Shown here: positions 4,950-57,351 of the stretch, in pieces
How positions within the stretch are numbered: position 1 is the first letter of the stretch
Layout of the letters: every line of letters begins with the position of its first letter
Source of the DNA: an uncultured Lachnospiraceae bacterium
GTDB taxonomy: Bacteria > Bacillota > Clostridia > Christensenellales > UBA1242
Assembly: GCA_964432825.1 (NCBI GenBank)
Contig: CAYSOX010000002.1
Location: forward strand, 16,188 to 80,187
Reading direction: 5' to 3'
DNA length: 64,000 bases
Notes under the pieces: generated by a model
What the model was told of the DNA's origin: nothing
Seen by the model: the letters and a program-made list of their open reading frames with translations, nothing else
Databases searched by the model: none
Position numbers and translations under genes: made by a program

Positions 4950-4966
4950 AAATTATTTAAATTTTA

Positions 4967-5020
4967 AAAACAGGTTTTAAGTTAGAAGGACACTTCAATT
5001 AAAAACCTGTTTTATTTTTG
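4967..5020 (+). terminator. Intrinsic terminator after dnaN
   Basis: A perfect 12-bp stem, AAAACAGGTTTT (4967-4978) paired with AAAACCTGTTTT (5002-5013), followed by a T-rich tail. The loop is rather large (23 nt). Confidence 0.55.
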
Positions 5021-5058
5021 TCTTAAAAAAAATATATTTTTAACAATTGTTTAACTGT

Positions 5059-33728: not shown

Positions 33729-34490
33729 TTAACGAGTTGCAATCCATTCATTGATGGTGGCTGAAATATCATAATTTTTATCAATTAATTTAAAGGCAAA
33801 TTCGCTTATAGGTTTTCCTAAAAAAGATTCGTTCAAACGATTAAAAAAACCGTCAAACATTGATACGCCTCTAAAGATTGATAAAACCAAGCAAATTGTA
33901 AATAAAAGTTCAACCGCCGACAATAGTCCAACCAATCCGCCCAAAGTTCGGTCAATTTTGCTTAAAATTTTGGTTGATTTTAATATTTTTCGTTCAAGTC
34001 TATTTAATATCCAAATTATAATTGAAAGAATAATAAATATTGCGATGAAAGTGCATACAATTAATATTAGGGTGGAAAGTGATTTGCCGACTATTTCAGC
34101 AAGGGTGATGGATTCGGTATTTGCCAAAGAATCTGGTGTTATGTTTAATAGCCCCGAAATTAATCCGCGGAAAATCTTTGGAATATTTGCTTCTCCCAAG
34201 GCGGTTTTAACAAACTCATTCAAATTTTCGCTAGGTATAGTTTTTAGGTTCACGCTAAAATTTTCGCCTAGTCCCACCGCCCAATCGCTACATTTTTCAA
34301 ACACGCTGGTTCCAAGTTTGGTTTTGTTTGCAAGAAAGTTTGCTACCGGCTTACTTAAAAAAAATGAGATAGCAAGTTTCACAAAGAAACCGCAAAATCT
34401 AGTGAGTGACCGAATAAAACCACTAAAGATGCCTATAATTATCGATAAAGCAACAATAACAATAATAATTATATCAATATATGTAAACAT
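33729..34490 (-). CDS. CvpA-family membrane protein
   Basis: The N-terminus YIDIIIIVIVALSIIIGIFSGFIRSL and the multi-TM layout resemble colicin V production protein family members. It is longer than typical members. Confidence 0.65.
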   Translation of the reverse strand: MFTYIDIIIIVIVALSIIIGIFSGFIRSLTRFCGFFVKLAISFFLSKPVANFLANKTKLGTSVFEKCSDWAVGLGENFSVNLKTIPSENLNEFVKTALGEANIPKIFRGLISGLLNITPDSLANTESITLAEIVGKSLSTLILIVCTFIAIFIILSIIIWILNRLERKILKSTKILSKIDRTLGGLVGLLSAVELLFTICLVLSIFRGVSMFDGFFNRLNESFLGKPISEFAFKLIDKNYDISATINEWIATR

Positions 34491-41766: not shown

Positions 41767-43578
41767 ATGAAAAAACTTTTACAAAATTGGAAAAAATTAT
41801 GCACCGTAGAGGGTAATGTGTTGGCGGTTAGCATTTTAACTCAAGTGGTTATAATAATCTGCTCAATCGTGGAACCGGTTGCACTCTCCTCCTTTATAGA
41901 ATGTGCAACTATTCATTCGACGGCACTTGCGGTTATTTGGCTTTTTATTAACTTAGGACTGGTTATTATTGAACATATTTCGTGGCATATAAATTATTCA
42001 AATTACACCAAATTAATTTCGCCAACATATATAAATTTGCAGTCTAGAATAACTAAAGCCACCTTGGTTGCATCAAAAGATATGATTGACAACACAAAAT
42101 TAAATTATTGCATAAACAGTGATATTTTTGGAATTGCGACATTTTTGGATAGTTTAATATTAAGGCTTGCAAGTTTTGTTAAGTTTTTGGTGATTTTGAT
42201 AATCATTTTCGTTTATAGTTACACGGTTGGTGTTATGCTTGTTGTGATGAGTGCTGTAGGATTTTCCTTACTTATGATGTACAACAAGTTAAAAAGAAGA
42301 AGTGGGATTGTGCTTAGAGAAAATGAGATAAGTGCGGACAAAAAGACACACGAAATTATAGAAATGGGCGAAGTGGTAAAAAAGTATAACTTGGAGAATC
42401 CTATGCTTTTAGAGCAAGAACGCCGACTTGTGGGTTATGTGAATAGTTACAACAATCTTTACACAAAAAAATCAATAAAGGATAATTTTATCCAAATTTA
42501 TTGGTACACTATGCTTTCGGTGATATTTTTGGTGTGCTATTTTGAGTTTAATGCTTTGGCTATGAGTTTGGCGGTGTTTTTAATTTTGATAGATTATTCT
42601 TCAACCTTTGTAAAGTTGACCGAAAATGCCTTTGATTTTACAATTGAAATTACAGATTTAGAAGAAAAGGTGAGCCGAACTTATGAAATTTTGGAATTTG
42701 AAAAAAATTCGCAAAAGAATGAAAATTTTCAAGATACGGAAAATTCACTTGTTTCAGACTTTGATGGGAACAAAACGAGTGGGAATATTGAAAGTGTTTC
42801 ACAAAATTTTGCAAAAAACGGAAAAAAATCCCCTCAAAGTATACAAAATAGCCATAATGAAGAAATATTGAAAGATAAAAAAACAAAAAGATTAAAAAGT
42901 TTTAGTGAAGAGCGGGCTGATTGTTTAAGTTTTGAGGTGGCGAGCGAAAGTGCCAATAATTTGCAAAATAAAAATACATTACAAAATATTGACTCGGATG
43001 AAAAGAATAAATTGTTAACTATAGAGAGTCAAAAAACCTTTTATCTTGCAGGGACGGGCTGTAAAAAAATGAAACTTATGCCCGCTAATGTATATATTTT
43101 TCAGTCGGATAAATCGCGTATGATTTTTTGCGAGGCGGGTGAAAATAATCCTAAAATTGAGTATGGTGACATTGAATATTCTTCAATTTACAAAATACCC
43201 GAACTGCTTTTGGTTAAAAACCAAAATGAGATGTTTGCCGATAGTATTATCGAAAATTTGCAAATTGTTAAAAACGATGTTGAATTAATAACTGCAATAA
43301 CAGAAAGTTTGGGAATTGATGAAATGTTAAATTGTTTAGACGACGGCGATCGCAAAAGAGCAGATAAAATAAAAGATGAAAAAGTTATAATTTTATTAAA
43401 TATTGTTCGTGCCATTTTATCCGATGCCGAAATTGTTTATTTTAAAATGGATGCTGAAGTGTTTGATTTTGGTAAAAATATAATAAAAACCTTTTGTAAA
43501 TTTGGTAAAAACAAAATAGTCTTGGTGTATGACCCCGCAAAAATGTTGAGTGGCAAAAGGGGAATATTTGTCGAATAA
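41767..43578 (+). CDS. ABC-exporter-like protein: type-I exporter transmembrane domain plus a degenerate C-terminal domain lacking Walker A
   Basis: The N-terminal 300 aa look like an ABC_membrane domain. In the C-terminal half I find no GxxGxGK(S/T), only a Walker-B-like remnant (RAILSDAEIVYFKMD). Confidence 0.55.
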   Translation: MKKLLQNWKKLCTVEGNVLAVSILTQVVIIICSIVEPVALSSFIECATIHSTALAVIWLFINLGLVIIEHISWHINYSNYTKLISPTYINLQSRITKATLVASKDMIDNTKLNYCINSDIFGIATFLDSLILRLASFVKFLVILIIIFVYSYTVGVMLVVMSAVGFSLLMMYNKLKRRSGIVLRENEISADKKTHEIIEMGEVVKKYNLENPMLLEQERRLVGYVNSYNNLYTKKSIKDNFIQIYWYTMLSVIFLVCYFEFNALAMSLAVFLILIDYSSTFVKLTENAFDFTIEITDLEEKVSRTYEILEFEKNSQKNENFQDTENSLVSDFDGNKTSGNIESVSQNFAKNGKKSPQSIQNSHNEEILKDKKTKRLKSFSEERADCLSFEVASESANNLQNKNTLQNIDSDEKNKLLTIESQKTFYLAGTGCKKMKLMPANVYIFQSDKSRMIFCEAGENNPKIEYGDIEYSSIYKIPELLLVKNQNEMFADSIIENLQIVKNDVELITAITESLGIDEMLNCLDDGDRKRADKIKDEKVIILLNIVRAILSDAEIVYFKMDAEVFDFGKNIIKTFCKFGKNKIVLVYDPAKMLSGKRGIFVE

Positions 43579-48421: not shown

Positions 48422-49327
48422 ATGGATAAAGTAGTTTTAATTGGATGTGGAAATGTGGGGGTAAGTTATGCATATAGTTTAATCAATAGTTCGGTACACG
48501 TTGATGAATTTGTGCTTATTGATGTTTTTAAAGAGGTTGCTGAGGGTCAAGCCTTGGATTTGTCGCACGCATGCAGTGCATTAAATAAAAGAATGAAAAT
48601 TTATGCGGGAGATTATTCGGATTGTGGTGATGCGAAAATTGTTTGCATCTGTGCCGGTCGAGGACAAGCGGTGGGTGAGACTAGAATGGATTTGATTAAT
48701 AAAAATTATGAAGTTTTTAAAAGCATTATTGGAGAGGTCGGCAAGACAAAATTTGATGGAATATATTTGGTTGCAACCAATCCGCTGGATGTAATGACGG
48801 CAATCACGCAAAAACTTTCAGGCTTCCCTAAAAACAAGGTTATTGGTAGCGGAACAACACTAGACACTGCAAGACTAAGAAGCCTTATAAGTAAAGAATT
48901 AAACTTAAACCCAAAAAATATTCATGCATATGTGATTGGTGAACATGGTGATAGTGAATTTATTCCATGGAGCAATGCAATAATTGGTTTAAATAAAGCA
49001 ACCGACTTTTTAAACAAGACTAAAAGAAATCAAATTTTAAAAGATGTTCGCCAATCCGCTTATGAAATTATTCAAAAGAAAGGCAATACTTGTTTTGGTA
49101 TTGGGGTATGTCTTAGAAACATCACAAAGGCAATCTTGGAAGATACCAATTCAATTATGACAGTTTCGTCTTTTGATGGTGTATATGGAACCTATTTGGG
49201 TCAACCCACCGTTGTTGGTTCGGACGGTGCTGAAAAGGTTATGCATTTGGAGTTAACCGAAGAAGAACAAACCGAGTTAAATGCTTCGGTTTCGGCTATA
49301 AAAAATGCATTAAAATCTTTAAACTAG
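48422..49327 (+). CDS. ldh: L-lactate dehydrogenase
   Basis: VVLIGCGNVGVSYAY (NAD-binding fold) and IGEHGDSEF. Start moved to the ATG at 48422 after AAGGAGAAAAG. The track ORF begins at an upstream TTG. Confidence 0.9.
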   Translation: MDKVVLIGCGNVGVSYAYSLINSSVHVDEFVLIDVFKEVAEGQALDLSHACSALNKRMKIYAGDYSDCGDAKIVCICAGRGQAVGETRMDLINKNYEVFKSIIGEVGKTKFDGIYLVATNPLDVMTAITQKLSGFPKNKVIGSGTTLDTARLRSLISKELNLNPKNIHAYVIGEHGDSEFIPWSNAIIGLNKATDFLNKTKRNQILKDVRQSAYEIIQKKGNTCFGIGVCLRNITKAILEDTNSIMTVSSFDGVYGTYLGQPTVVGSDGAEKVMHLELTEEEQTELNASVSAIKNALKSLN

Positions 49328-49595
49328 GGTAAAATTTCATAATATATCGACTTTTTATCTATTTTGGCGAAGAAAATATTGACAAATTAGTCATTTTGGT
49401 GTAGCATTTACAATGTAAAGCAATGGGAAGAGTCTGGGTGGTAAACGGTTGAAAAAGTTAAACTTTTAAGTTTTCTAGATTAAAACTTTAAAAAGCGTAA
49501 ATCAACTAGGCTTCAATTTTAATGCCCTCTAGTGCCCCCAAAAAGCAAAAATCCAACTTTTGGTAAATAAAAAAGGAAAATAAAAGGAAATTATT

Positions 49596-49652
49596 ATGTT
49601 TCAAACACTAAATAATAATAACAATAATAATTTAAACGCACAAAAATTTTAG
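49596..49652 (+). CDS. Candidate asnS leader peptide MFQTLNNNNNNNLNAQKF (8 Asn in 18 codons)
   Basis: SD AAAGGA lies 8 nt upstream of the ATG. There are seven consecutive Asn codons (AAT/AAC) plus one more. The stop codon lies 29 nt before a strong intrinsic terminator, and asnS is the next gene. Confidence 0.6.
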   Translation: MFQTLNNNNNNNLNAQKF

Positions 49653-49680
49653 TGGGTTCCTTTTGAGTTAAAAAAAATTT

Positions 49681-49720
49681 AAGTCACTTTTTAGGAAAAC
49701 ACTAAGAAGTGACTTTTTTT
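49681..49720 (+). terminator. Attenuator terminator in the asnS leader
   Basis: A 14-bp stem, AAGTCACTTTTTAG (49681-49694) with CTAAGAAGTGACTT (49702-49715, one G-U pair), loop GAAAACA, and a T7 tail. Confidence 0.8.
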
Positions 49721-49934
49721 AGGAGGGAATTATGGCAAGACGAAACGCCGTGGCGGGCGAAGGGATAAAATTAAATTAATAAAAAATGTAACAATTAAAC
49801 TTGTAAAATTGATATTATTTGTGCTAAACTAAAAAAGTAAAGAAAAACACAGTTTTATATAAAATAAGCCGAATTAATAAAAGGTGTTTTAAATGGGCAC
49901 AAGAAAACTTAAAAACTAAAATTAGGAGTAAATT

Positions 49935-51323
49935 ATGAAAAAAATTGATATTAAAATTTTAAATGAAGAATTTGAAAAGCATTCGGGAGAAATAGTAAAA
50001 GTTGCGGGCTGGGTAAAAAGTGTTCGAAATAGCAAAGATTTCGGATTTTTAACCATCACCGATGGTACATGTTTTAAACCTTTGCAAATAATTATTGATA
50101 CCACACTTGAAAATTTTGAAGCCGTTTCAAAGTTGATTGCCGGCTCAACGGTTATTGTAGAAGGTGAGGTTAAGTGTACTCCAGAAAATAAGCAACCTTA
50201 TGAACTTTTGGCACGAAATGTTGAAATTTTCTGTGCTACAGATAATGAATATCCTTTGCAAAAGAAGGGGCATTCGGTCGAATTTTTGCGTAAAATTGCT
50301 TATTTAAGACCTCGCTCAAACCTTTTCCAGGCAGTTTTTAGAATAAGAAGTGTTGCAGCACAGTCAATCCATAACTATTTTCAAAAGAACGGATATTTAT
50401 ATGTAAACACTCCACTTATCACAACTGCCGATTGTGAGGGCTCGGACCAAATGTTTAAAATCACCACACTTAAGTTTGATGATTTGCCAAAAACCGAAGA
50501 CGGAAAGGTTGATATGACTCAAGACCTTTTTGGAAAACAAGCATTTATAACGGGTTCTGGGCAACTTCATGGTGAGGCTTTTGCTTTGGCATTCAACAAA
50601 ATTTACACCTTTGGGCCTACCTTCAGAACGGAAAATTCAAACACAAAATATCATGCTAACGAATTTTGGATGATAGAACCAGAAATAGCCTTTTGCGACT
50701 TAGACGAACTTATGGATATAGAGGAAGATATGCTAAAGTCGGTGGTTGGTGATGTTTTAAGGGATTGTCCAGATGAATTGGCGTTTTTGAATCAATTTAT
50801 AGACAACACTTTACTTGAAAAACTTAACAAGTTGGTAAATAGCAAGTTTACCCGTATTGACCATAGCGAAGTTATTGATATCTTGCAAAAAGCCGATTGT
50901 AAGTGGGAATTTTATCCTGAACAAGGCGGAGATATCGCAAAAGAACACGAAAAATATATAACCGAATATTTCAATGGCCCGGTATTTATCAAAAATTGGC
51001 CAAAGGATATTAAGGCTTATTATATGAAGCAAAACGCCGACGGAAAAACGGTTGCTGCGGTAGATTTGGAAGTTCCGGGTGCTGGCGAACTTATGGGTGG
51101 AAGTCAAAGAGAAGAGTCTTATGAAAAGATTATGAAAAGGTGTGAGGAAATGGGTGTAGACACCTCTTCAATTGACTGGTATTTAAATTTAAGAAAATTT
51201 GGTTCTTGTGTTCACTCGGGGTTCGGGATGGGCTTCGAAAGATTGGTTATGTACCTAACGGGTGTAGATAACATTCGTGACACTATTCCATTCCCAAGAA
51301 CACCATTAAATTGTGCATATTAA
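49935..51323 (+). CDS. asnS: Asparaginyl-tRNA synthetase
   Basis: Class IIb synthetase: FGPTFRTENSNTKYHANEFWMIEPE (AsnRS-type motif 2 region) and GFGMGFERLVMYLTG (motif 3). Confidence 0.97.
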   Translation: MKKIDIKILNEEFEKHSGEIVKVAGWVKSVRNSKDFGFLTITDGTCFKPLQIIIDTTLENFEAVSKLIAGSTVIVEGEVKCTPENKQPYELLARNVEIFCATDNEYPLQKKGHSVEFLRKIAYLRPRSNLFQAVFRIRSVAAQSIHNYFQKNGYLYVNTPLITTADCEGSDQMFKITTLKFDDLPKTEDGKVDMTQDLFGKQAFITGSGQLHGEAFALAFNKIYTFGPTFRTENSNTKYHANEFWMIEPEIAFCDLDELMDIEEDMLKSVVGDVLRDCPDELAFLNQFIDNTLLEKLNKLVNSKFTRIDHSEVIDILQKADCKWEFYPEQGGDIAKEHEKYITEYFNGPVFIKNWPKDIKAYYMKQNADGKTVAAVDLEVPGAGELMGGSQREESYEKIMKRCEEMGVDTSSIDWYLNLRKFGSCVHSGFGMGFERLVMYLTGVDNIRDTIPFPRTPLNCAY

Positions 51324-55416: not shown

Positions 55417-57351
55417 ATGAAGATAAGGCTAAACGATGTGAGTGTGTCCTTTGGCGAAAACACCGTGTTGTCGCACATCAATTTTGAAATTAATGAGGGT
55501 GACAAGGTTGCATTAATTGGAAGAAATGGATGCGGAAAGTCCACCTTAATTAAGGTGATAACAGGCGAACAAGATATAGACAAGGTGGAAGAGGGAACTC
55601 ATATAAATAGAATTGAAAAAACGGGTTCGTTTAAAATTGGGCAAATCAAACAGATTACCTTTGATGACGACAGCGCAACCCTAGAAGATGAGGTGCTAAA
55701 AGCATACTCATATATTTTTGATGTTAAAAATAAGATGGAAGAGTTGGAGCGAGTTCTTGAGTCGGGTGCTAGCGAAAAACAAATTGAAAAGTACACCAGA
55801 CTTTGCGAAGACTTTGAACGGATTGGCGGGTATACATATAAAAAAGAATGCAACAAAGCCTTAAAAAACTTCGGATTTACCGAAGAGGAAAAACAAAAGA
55901 AAATTTCGGAATTTTCGGGCGGGCAACGAACAAAAATTGCTTTGATAAAATTGCTTCTTTCAAAACCCGATGTTTTAGTTTTGGATGAGCCAACCAACCA
56001 CTTGGATATTCTTGCAATTGAATGGCTGGAAAATTACCTATTAGAATATAAAAAAGCCGTGCTTGTTGTGTCTCACGACCGTGCATTTTTAGACAAATTC
56101 GTAAATGTGGTTTATGAAATTGAGCGTGGAAAAATGAAACGCTATGTTGGAAATTATACTAAATTTACCGAATTAAAAGAAGCGGAGTATCAAAAACAAT
56201 TAAAGGAATACAATGAGTATAAGTCGGAAGTGGAGAGACTTCACTCGCTTGCCGATAGGTTTAGATATAAAGCCACCAAAGCCACCATGGCGCAAAGTAA
56301 ATTAAAGCAAATAGACCGAATGGAGGTGGTTGAAAAGCCAGAAAGTGCCGACGATAAAGCCTTTCACGGAAACACCGAACCACTAAGGGAAAGTTCAACC
56401 AGTGTATTAAAAGTGGATGAACTAAAAATTGGGTACACCAAACCTTTAAGTGAGGTCACTTTTAGAATAAACAAGGGTGACCGCTTGGGGGTTATTGGCG
56501 AAAATGGAACGGGTAAATCTACACTTTTAAAAACCATTATGGGCAAAGTTCAGCCACTTGGTGGGAAAATAACTTTTGGGACAAATTTAGATATTGAGTA
56601 TTTCGACCAACAGACGGTCAGTGCCAATTTATCCGACCAAACAGTTTTTGATAATTATTCGCATGAGTTTCCCGAACTTTCCATAACCGAAGCACGAACG
56701 GATTTGGGGTCGTTTATGTTTAGCGGAGACGATGTTTTTAAAACCATCAAAGAACTTTCGGGTGGCGAACGCGTACGGCTTGCACTTTGTAAGATTTTTA
56801 AAAAGCGTCCAAATTTTTTAATTTTGGATGAACCAACAAATCACCTAGATATAGTTGGCAAAGTTGCACTTGAAAATATGTTAACGAAATATAAAGGAAC
56901 CATTCTTTTTGTTTCGCACGACCGTTATTTTGTAAAGAAAATTGCGACCACATTACTCAGATTTTCGGGCGGAAAAGCGGAGTTTATTAAGTCCAACTAT
57001 GAAGAATTAAAGGCGAAAGAATTGAGGGATGCTGTAGACCCTAAAGTATTAAAAGCAGAAACTATTGAAGAAATTAAAAATAAAGACATCGAACCCGAGG
57101 AAGAAAAACCAAAGGTTAATGAATATTTGTTAAATAAAGAACGCGCACGAAAGGAAGCCCGCGCAAAGCGAATAGAAAAAGAAATAAATGCCCTAGAAAC
57201 AGAGATTTTAGTTTTGCAAGATGAATATAAAAATCCGCAAATATGTAGTGATTTTAAAAAACTTATGGAGATTGAAACGGCAATTGTTAATCGCGAAACT
57301 AAAATTGAAAGTTTAACCGAAGAGTGGTTTGAATTAACCAGCGAAGAGTAG
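55417..57351 (+). CDS. ABC-F family ATPase (two nucleotide-binding domains, no membrane domain)
   Basis: Two Walker A motifs (GRNGCGKST, GENGTGKST), two signature motifs (FSGGQRTK, LSGGERVR), an interdomain linker and a C-terminal coiled coil. Confidence 0.93.
   Translation: MKIRLNDVSVSFGENTVLSHINFEINEGDKVALIGRNGCGKSTLIKVITGEQDIDKVEEGTHINRIEKTGSFKIGQIKQITFDDDSATLEDEVLKAYSYIFDVKNKMEELERVLESGASEKQIEKYTRLCEDFERIGGYTYKKECNKALKNFGFTEEEKQKKISEFSGGQRTKIALIKLLLSKPDVLVLDEPTNHLDILAIEWLENYLLEYKKAVLVVSHDRAFLDKFVNVVYEIERGKMKRYVGNYTKFTELKEAEYQKQLKEYNEYKSEVERLHSLADRFRYKATKATMAQSKLKQIDRMEVVEKPESADDKAFHGNTEPLRESSTSVLKVDELKIGYTKPLSEVTFRINKGDRLGVIGENGTGKSTLLKTIMGKVQPLGGKITFGTNLDIEYFDQQTVSANLSDQTVFDNYSHEFPELSITEARTDLGSFMFSGDDVFKTIKELSGGERVRLALCKIFKKRPNFLILDEPTNHLDIVGKVALENMLTKYKGTILFVSHDRYFVKKIATTLLRFSGGKAEFIKSNYEELKAKELRDAVDPKVLKAETIEEIKNKDIEPEEEKPKVNEYLLNKERARKEARAKRIEKEINALETEILVLQDEYKNPQICSDFKKLMEIETAIVNRETKIESLTEEWFELTSEE

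Follow-up and report, generated by a model that had tools for sequence, protein, structure and literature searches.

T-box riboswitches are regarded as the rule for aminoacyl-tRNA synthetase genes in Bacillota, and leader-peptide attenuation has rarely been described there. The E. coli synthetase operon pheST is said, from work of the 1980s associated with Springer/Fayat et al., to be under the control of a leader peptide (pheM) rich in the cognate amino acid and of a terminator. In Bacilli, a His leader peptide takes the place of a T-box before a hisS paralogue and before hisZ (Naville & Gautheret 2010; PMC2965389); its authors noted that no regular leader peptide had been known from Firmicutes before (PMC2965389). 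The ilv-leu operon of S. aureus has a leucine-rich attenuator peptide (PMC5794164), and ermB, which is subject to translational attenuation, has two leader peptides (PMC8274638). Here the region upstream of asnS was analysed in a stretch of 64,000 nucleotides (nt) from an uncultured Lachnospiraceae bacterium (NCBI GenBank assembly GCA_964432825.1, contig CAYSOX010000002.1, positions 16,188 to 80,187 of the forward strand). This whole stretch is called the window; positions given without a locus name are counted from its first letter, and asnS and the parts of its leader lie on the plus strand. To judge from its sequence and from modelled folds, the region very probably acts as a ribosome-mediated leader-peptide transcription attenuator, which reports the charging of tRNA-Asn and controls read-through into asnS.

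The leader peptide MFQTLNNNNNNNLNAQKF is specified by an open reading frame of 18 codons (ORF1, 49596-49652; ATG at 49596, stop codon TAG at 49650-49652). A Shine-Dalgarno (SD) sequence, AAGGA (49584-49588), was read from the sequence 7 nt 5' of the ATG. Seven consecutive Asn codons (AAT AAT AAT AAC AAT AAT AAT, 49611-49631) make up the putative regulatory run, and an eighth, AAC, is found at 49635-49637. The stop codon lies 3 nt 5' of the motif UGGGU, an arrangement referred to as the short form. An intrinsic terminator was identified by terminator scan at 49681-49720, with a stem of 14 base pairs (bp), four of which are G-C, a loop of 7 nt and a T7 tract (5' arm 49681-49694, loop 49695-49701, 3' arm 49702-49715, T7 tract 49714-49720). 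It is followed by a second mini-ORF (ORF2, MARRNAVAGEGIKLN, also of the short form, 49732-49779 with its stop codon), which is preceded by the strong SD AGGAGGG (49721-49727). The regulated gene, asnS (asparagine--tRNA ligase, 49935-51323), has the SD AGGAG (49923-49927), and its product was assigned by NF003037 (589.5 bits against a cutoff of 414) and TIGR00457 (554.1 bits). All features listed in the first-pass annotation were present, and the coordinates that it had given agreed with the sequence.

The best sigma-70-like match of the region (10/12), P1 (TTGACA-17-TAGCAT, 49379-49407), is the likely promoter of the leader transcript. It is homologous to the leader promoter TTGACAAACTAATTTTTTGGTGCTAATAT of the relative L003, and transcription presumably starts there. 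P1 and the ribosome-binding site of ORF1 are separated by a lineage-specific spacer or insert of about 175 nt (49408-49582), which is not present in other members of the family described below and which gave no match in an Rfam search. A repeat or mobile-element origin of 49408-49595 was considered and rejected, as no further copies were found.

Relatives of AsnS were scanned with one genome per species, which gave 80 loci, mainly from uncultured Clostridia and from metagenome-assembled genomes (MAGs) labelled 'Christensenella', with some Bacilli and Tenericutes MAGs. At 16 distinct loci, a poly-Asn leader ORF homologous or analogous to ORF1 was found 5' of asnS, asnA-asnS, asnA or aspS-asnS. 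L003 (81% AsnS identity) has a homologous block with the same promoter sequence, the leader MVMFFAELNNCNNNLILLNS, a 14-bp terminator and, overlapping the ORF1 stop codon, TTAGTGAGTTCC; its second mini-ORF is MKKSNAVAGEICIK. All loci were also scanned for Asn runs and for the ORF2 motif, with five further cases as the result. In L029 and L036, MIKFINNNNNNNLKHIC is followed by a terminator, ORF2 and asnA-asnS, and L039 has a leader with nine Asn codons (N9) and an ORF2 before aspS. The leaders of L041 (MLKIKLNDDCNNNNLYTF, 1616-1672) and L052 (MRIRLNDDCNNNNNAF, 1089-1139) stand directly before aspS-asnS, contain Asp as well as Asn codons (LNDDCNNNN) and are not followed by an ORF2; the terminator abuts the aspS SD. 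The antiterminator strand has the terminator 5' arm, not the loop, as its partner at these two loci.

A further search was made with the AsnA protein of L036, and contigs of ten AsnA clusters (70-86% identical to it) were examined. ORF1 and ORF2 were both present 5' of asnA in all ten, irrespective of the upstream neighbour; MFRLINNNNNNNLNAFNMGFIFVVEKI and MFGLVINNNNNNNKNACVLGSIFVVINQA are examples of their ORF1 peptides. Between ORF1 and ORF2, the asnA leaders L221 (898-968), L210, L214, L218, L222, L223 and L224, which are of the long form defined below, have two terminators in tandem. Antitermination at the first could be relayed to the second, since its 3' arm (e.g. AGAGUGU) and the 5' arm of the second (ACACUCU) have complementary sequences. 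In L039, an A-rich unit (AACAAACAAAAAATAATAAC, about 20 nt) occurs in four tandem copies (4950-5030) in the interval from the leader terminator to ORF2. A metagenome scan with the pattern AATAAYAAYAAYAAYN{6,30}TARTGGGT gave no convincing new member among the at least 120 stretches listed, nearly all of which were (AAT)n microsatellite-like or poly-Asn coding sequence.

The geometry of the leaders was conserved. The SD and ATG of ORF1 were found at 16/16 loci, with an SD of the GGAG/GGA type at constant spacing; the run of seven Asn codons (N7) was retained at 11 of the 16, and a -10 element ends 22-30 nt before the ATG at 13 of them. The end of the Asn run is 12-21 nt from UGGGU at every one of the 16 loci, roughly as far as a ribosome extends past its A site. 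The ORF1 stop codon precedes UGGGU by 3-6 nt in the short form, to which the window belongs, and follows it by 23-32 nt in the long form; a terminating ribosome would therefore always cover the UGGGU strand, and a ribosome stalled in the run would never do so. UGGGUU is the most conserved nucleotide motif of the family. Since ATGGGTT is retained whether it is coding or not, and whatever the reading frame, it appears to function at the RNA level. Terminators were present at the same place in the 13 loci examined with a script scan, and the dedicated terminator scan confirmed those of the window, L003, L221 and L214, the four loci on which it was run.

In the window, a predicted antiterminator pairs a 5' strand (49647-49672), which includes the ORF1 stop codon and UGGGUU, with a 3' strand (49678-49707), which overlaps the 5' arm of the terminator, its loop and the first 6 nt of its 3' arm. 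It consists of four short helices, in which UUUUAGUG (49647-49654) is paired with 49700-49707, UUCCU (49657-49661) with 49693-49697, UGA (49664-49666) with 49684-49686, and UUAAA (49668-49672) with 49678-49682. The first-pass annotation had drawn two pairings for segment 2 (TTAGTGGGTTCC, 49649-49660). That with GGAAAACACTAA (49694-49705), at the terminator apex, was recovered as part of this larger structure; the other, a 6-bp pairing of CACTAA (49606-49611) with TTAGTG of segment 2, was found in no predicted fold, is not conserved and was abandoned.

The fold of 49560-49730, a check named in the first-pass annotation, gave z = -4.6 against shuffles. An extended duplex, calculated with RNAduplex between the stretch from the Asn run to the terminator and the 5' flank, 5' arm, loop and proximal 3' arm of the terminator, was imperfect and, in the window, had an energy of -20.0 kcal/mol (z = -4.3); z was -2.8 to -4.6 in five of the seven loci first tested. 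The minimum free energy (MFE) of 49647-49709 was -18.2 kcal/mol (z = -4.0), with 7 of the 14 nt of the terminator 5' arm paired upstream, and 49647-49715 with the terminator stem forced gave -17.3 kcal/mol. When the last 6 nt of the terminator were left out of the transcript, the MFE structure was the antiterminator in all 12 loci tested, with 5-10 nt of the 5' arm paired upstream and none with the 3' arm. Switching in the window was judged from such truncated-transcript (kinetic) folds, not from equilibrium masking. In L036, masking by a ribosome placed at the first, middle or last Asn codon or at the stop codon gave terminator probabilities (P) of 0.16, 0.03, 0.73 and 0.91, respectively.

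Column-based covariation on a MAFFT alignment was tried and dropped, because differences in loop length shift the register between lineages; it was replaced by duplex tests against shuffles, locus by locus. UGGGUUCC was taken as the antiterminator segment and the terminator apex (49693-49707) as its partner. UGGGUU(Y)C paired with the apex in 11 of the 13 loci tested, as the first-pass annotation had drawn it for segment 2 in the window, with per-locus p values of 0.002-0.06 and a combined p of 2e-8 over ten lineages. A compensatory change was found between L214 (GGGUUUCA:UGAAAUCC) and L218 (GGGUUCCA:UGGAAUCC). Ribosome-mediated attenuation, which had been proposed from a single sequence, is thus supported by the same geometry at 16 loci and by the antiterminator folds. 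The anatomy, the conserved geometry, the alternative folds and the covariation were all established computationally across these 16 loci. In its predicted behaviour the locus resembles a classical leader-peptide attenuator: a leader ORF with an SD, a cluster of cognate codons, an intrinsic terminator and a predicted, mutually exclusive antiterminator were all found in it.

Chance was considered as a source of the pattern. The G+C content of the window is 31.9%; from base composition, a run of at least seven Asn codons is expected 1.4e-4 times per strand of the window, and one was observed. The composite of an Asn5 run, 6-30 nt and TARTGGGT occurred in none of 100 dinucleotide shuffles. The only other Asn-codon run in the window, of six codons (34452-34469), has no start codon and lies opposite an ORF of 253 residues on the other strand (33729-34490); it was taken as a chance product of complementary-strand coding.

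In the mechanism proposed, transcription would proceed from P1 and ORF1 would be translated while RNA polymerase advances. With Asn-tRNA plentiful, the ribosome would reach the UAG at 49650 and cover 49647 to about 49663, the 5' strand of the antiterminator; the 14-bp terminator (49681-49715 and the T7 tract) would then form, and the transcript would end near 49720. With Asn-tRNA scarce, the ribosome would stall within 49611-49631, its front edge short of 49647. The exposed UUUUAGUGGGUUCCU..UGA.UUAAA would pair with 49678-49707, which extends from the 5' flank of the terminator through its 5' arm and loop to the sixth nucleotide of its 3' arm; the terminator would remain incomplete, and the polymerase would continue through ORF2 into asnS. 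On a leader without a ribosome, segment 2 would be held by the SD region of ORF1 and the terminator would form by default. In the corresponding fold, the ORF1 SD region (about 49581-49587) pairs with UCCUUUU of segment 2 (about 49658-49664), and the terminator has P = 0.94. Translation of ORF1, the start of transcription, termination in vivo and the response to Asn are presumed in this scheme.

The same part of segment 2 has a further partner. In the MFE structure of 49560-49730, which is in the terminator conformation, CCUUUUGAG (49659-49667) pairs with 49718-49726, that is, with the SD of ORF2. Since only the antiterminator fold leaves this SD unpaired, ORF2 is probably translated on read-through transcripts alone. 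The pyrimidine stretch that follows UGGGUU (UUCCUUUUGAG) can pair with either SD, with that of ORF2 when the terminator is formed and with that of ORF1 when the leader is untranslated. In these models, one anti-SD-like segment may gate both mini-ORFs.

Several observations weigh against attenuation at this locus. The closest relatives, L001 (90% AsnS identity) and L002 (84%), have a promoter alone before asnS; an Asn run in related asnS leaders, looked for at the suggestion of the first-pass annotation, was present in L003 and the other family loci and missing from these two. The element is lacking from the majority of the 80 asnS loci and is patchy in close relatives. The -10 element of P1 ends 188 nt before the ORF1 ATG (22-30 nt at other loci), and the window ORF1 SD (AAGGA) is weaker than those of the relatives. 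For the window, the pairing of the 12-mer of segment 2 with the apex gave p = 0.21 on its own, and the extended duplex alone was significant. Equilibrium folds of the window favoured the terminator wherever the ribosome was placed (P = 0.84-0.94); switching would therefore have to be kinetic, as is usual for attenuators. A candidate proximal promoter with an extended -10, P2 (TTGTAA-18-TGcTAAACT, 49801-49830), was picked out tentatively by eye and scores below the threshold of the promoter scan in the window. It aligns with TTGCAG-18-TGcTAAAAT of L003, and its counterpart in the leaderless L002, TTGCTA-18-TGgTAAAAT (2940-2969), is the sole asnS promoter there. From this resemblance, P2 may give asnS a basal expression independent of the attenuator. 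Finally, the core of ORF2 is not explained by the attenuator model.

Some of these points would fit a relic, in which a leader-ORF2-asnA-asnS cassette has lost asnA, asnS is transcribed from 49801-49830, and the block merely terminates transcripts from ldh or P1. A P2-like promoter suffices in L002, the nearest relatives manage without the element, the variable insert of 175 nt separates P1 from ORF1, and the window ORF2 is without the Asn-rich tail and the SD-mimic/anti-SD switch seen before asnA. This explanation is nevertheless improbable. ORF1, the N7 run, UGGGUU, the terminator and ORF2 are all intact, no terminator was predicted by the scan between ORF2 and asnS (49721 to 49935), and L003 retains the same short-form architecture before asnS despite extensive nucleotide divergence. 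Variation among four strains with identical AsnS points the same way: 9.0% of columns are variable in the insert, the highest value of any block, as against 1.4% in the ORF1 block and 1.7% in the ORF2 block, which are thus 5-6 times less variable than the insert next to them. The single change in ORF1 among these strains is synonymous. The N7 run is constant in length and is therefore not an unstable microsatellite. The sole change in the loop (A49701G, strain L202) turns a U-A pair of the antiterminator into U-G, so that pairing is retained. ORF2 (49732-49779) has no substitutions, the only variable column of the block formed by its SD and coding sequence being in the SD-ATG spacer.

It is very improbable that the switch is worked by some other factor (uncharged tRNA-Asn, a protein or a metabolite) and that the Asn-codon ORF is incidental. 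T-boxes or RNA-binding proteins are common in Bacillota for such control, UGGGUU and the GC-rich core of ORF2 are conserved as nucleotides, and Asn T-boxes occupy the same slot in two of the loci scanned: in L064 (Bacilli MAG) directly before asnS (2774-2972, 98.8 bits) and in L072 (Tenericutes MAG) before asnA-asnS (1749-1956, 123.5 bits), both with an AAC specifier context. However, the covariance-model search that detected these two T-boxes gave no T-box (RF00230) hit at the gathering score across the 64-kb window and none at E <= 10 within 49000-50300, and no Rfam family, the T-box included, matched the leader region at E <= 10. In the Asn run it is the codons that are conserved, AAT and AAC occurring together, and the flanks diverge; SD and ATG are correctly spaced at each locus; and the distances from the run and from the stop codon to segment 2 fit the ribosome footprint in 16/16 loci. 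Codon content also follows operon content: Asp and Asn codons before an operon for AspRS and AsnRS are predicted by a codon-reading sensor and not by an incidental ORF.

The T-box that the first-pass annotation had expected before asnS was thus encountered in the more distant relatives L064 and L072, but none was found near asnS in the 37 closer Clostridia-type relatives scanned, most of which are without a leader peptide too. A possible T-box remnant, GGGTGGTAAACGG (49447-49459), in the insert 3' of P1, was rejected, since it has no Rfam match and the string varies among strains. Occupation of the same operon slot by a T-box in one branch and by a leader peptide in another is, at the level of sequence, a clear case of evolutionary exchange. 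The locus belongs to no curated family. The Rfam leader families (Leu_leader, His_leader, Thr_leader, Trp_leader and Phe_leader) gave no match in the window at E <= 10, and their best match in the relative L221 (Phe_leader, 25.4 bits against a gathering score of 55) covered the terminator hairpins alone. No description of an Asn leader peptide, of attenuation of asnA or asnS, or of the NAVAGE ORF was found in the searchable literature, outside which many subscription papers lie, and Rfam 15 contains no Asn leader.

ORF2 had been recorded in the first-pass annotation as a second mini-ORF with a very strong SD and of unknown meaning. The SD is as recorded; the ORF itself proved to be not an isolated feature but a conserved part of the leader family, an ORF of the form M..NAVAG[E/D] with a strong SD being present at 14 of the 16 loci (NAHKGASE in the variant of L039). 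A strong SD precedes the ATG, and between the start and N-A-V-A-G-E/D stand two to four residues, most of them basic; the core NAVAGE codons of the window are at 49744-49761. Among the 14 copies read, only the L039 variant departs from NAVAG[E/D]. The core is encoded by AAY GCC GTR/T GCR GGC GAN, with changes at third positions alone, and insertions or deletions are multiples of three (9 and 6 nt relative to L039), so that the frame is kept. GCC and GGC are constant in every copy of the NAVAG core although the genomes are AT-rich, which suggests a constraint on the RNA as well; GCC, 6 nt and GGC may form a mini-hairpin (GCC-GUGGCG-GGC, 49747-49758 in the window). A protein search with a 46-residue ORF2 returned the query itself and no larger family, and so gave no backing to the idea that ORF2 is the 5' remnant of one, the sensitivity of such a search being low for queries this short.

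It is scarcely credible that ORF1, ORF2 or both form a stand-alone unit adjoining asnS whose products act as small peptides, be it as a toxin, as a signal or as the precursor of a ribosomally synthesized and post-translationally modified peptide. In favour of it, the NAVAG[E/D] core is invariant with synonymous nucleotide changes, and the long-form ORF1 tails (MGFIFVVEKI) are conserved as peptides. Against it, the cassette always lies directly 5' of Asn/Asp genes on the same strand with any upstream neighbour, the ORF1 tails switch between short and long while the RNA motif stays, the 46-residue ORF2 led to no larger protein family, and the genes called in the asnA loci examined included none for maturation or export.

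In asnA-type leaders (L029 1700-1920, L036 1732-1937, L207 1778-2004, L221 1059-1204 and L223 1054-1204), ORF2 continues into an Asp/Asn-rich tail (EEDNNNNNNYLRRIFK in L221, for example, and DNDNNNNSCLRR in L223), at the end of which lies an SD-like segment X (UUUAAGGAG). X pairs with a downstream anti-SD Y (CUCCUUAAA). Y pairs alternatively with the asnA SD (Z), for which X is thus a competing mimic, and X alternatively with the ORF2 initiation region (W). In the asnA-type relatives L029, L036 and L207, the energies were -19 to -22 kcal/mol for X:Y (z about -4) and -14 to -16 kcal/mol for Y:Z (z -3.7 to -6); W:X in asnA-type relatives gave about -9 kcal/mol (z -2.6 to -5). The modelled pairings suggest that the asnA-type ORF2 is a second, ermC-like translational attenuator, which would be driven by hungry Asn codons. 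The ORF1 stage and this ORF2 stage together would make a two-stage Asn sensor, transcriptional and then translational.

No such SD-mimic/anti-SD switch was found in the window or in L003, where pairing of the asnS initiation region was not above shuffles (z = +1.0 and +0.6, respectively). ORF2 of the window and of L003 has no Asp/Asn-rich tail, and that of the window has the conserved NAVAGE head alone. The window ORF2 may serve as a checkpoint with a single Asn codon or as a ribosome-loaded stabiliser of the read-through mRNA, the favoured proposal, though rated somewhat short of even; that it is a retained remnant of an asnA-type leader is rather doubtful. The conserved head could also act as an RNA signal. 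It is unlikely that the two ORFs form a two-sensor device, in which ORF1 would read the charging of tRNA-Asn and ORF2 would encode a regulatory nascent peptide that pauses the ribosome from the exit tunnel, with an arrest for which free asparagine, aspartate or some other small molecule might be the signal. NAVAGE lies 4 to 29 codons from the stop codon, which differs from the fixed motif-to-stop distance of arrest peptides such as TnaC, SecM, MifM and SpeFL. If true, ORF2 would represent a new class of metabolite-sensing arrest peptide beside TnaC and SpeFL, in tandem with a classical attenuator.

Two other coding sequences of the window were recorded. A 644-residue ABC-F protein (55417-57351) was assigned to NF000355 (ribosomal protection-like ABC-F family protein; 449.9 bits against a cutoff of 380); the protein it most resembles is OptrA, with a score far under the cutoff of the OptrA model. 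An ORF of 603 residues (41767-43578) had no NCBIfam match at E <= 1e-10.

The leader family precedes every sampled asnA of a large group of uncultured low-GC Clostridia/Bacilli MAGs from gut and rumen, and in other genomes it precedes asnS and aspS-asnS. It provides an annotation rule for hundreds of mini-ORFs now called 'hypothetical'. The tandem design is unusual, with a transcriptional stage followed by a mini-ORF that, before asnA, resembles a translational stage with an Asn run of its own. For synthetic biology in Gram-positive hosts, the element would offer a compact and portable sensor of Asn starvation.

The closest likeness in architecture is to the trp, his, leu, thr, ilv and pheA leaders of Proteobacteria, in which a translated ORF with a cluster of cognate codons is followed by a terminator and a mutually exclusive antiterminator. 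As in those leaders, a ribosome that stalls would bare the 5' strand of the antiterminator, and one that has reached the end of the ORF would mask it. The locus differs from them in its presumed specificity for asparagine, in its host (a low-GC Clostridia-type gut MAG), in an antiterminator that, in the window, invades the apex and loop of the terminator, and in the second conserved mini-ORF after the terminator; there is no sequence similarity to the curated Trp_leader, His_leader, Leu_leader, Thr_leader and Phe_leader families of Rfam. With pheST it shares a synthetase gene under a leader peptide rich in the cognate amino acid and a terminator. The two differ in phylum and in amino acid and share no homology, and a second mini-ORF is absent from pheM.

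Among Firmicutes, the His leader of Bacilli (PMC2965389) is a comparable exchange of T-box and leader peptide before a gene of a synthetase family; it is specific for His and not Asn, has a single ORF, is unrelated in sequence and is a computational prediction only. The ilv-leu leader of S. aureus (PMC5794164) is likewise a leader-peptide attenuator in a Firmicute, but it is specific for Leu, controls a biosynthetic operon and not a synthetase, and has no second ORF. The hairpin chain W:X, X:Y, Y:Z predicted in the asnA-type relatives resembles those of ermC and ermB in that a stalled ribosome could re-route it; the stall would come from hungry Asn codons and not from an antibiotic, and neither the window nor L003 has the switch. 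Asn T-boxes (RF00230) act on the same genes with the same signal, tRNA-Asn charging, and the same output, terminator read-through, but bind uncharged tRNA directly and need no translation. As far as Rfam 15 and the searchable literature show, the locus would extend classical attenuation to a new specificity (Asn), to new targets (asnS, asnA and aspS) and to a new two-ORF architecture.

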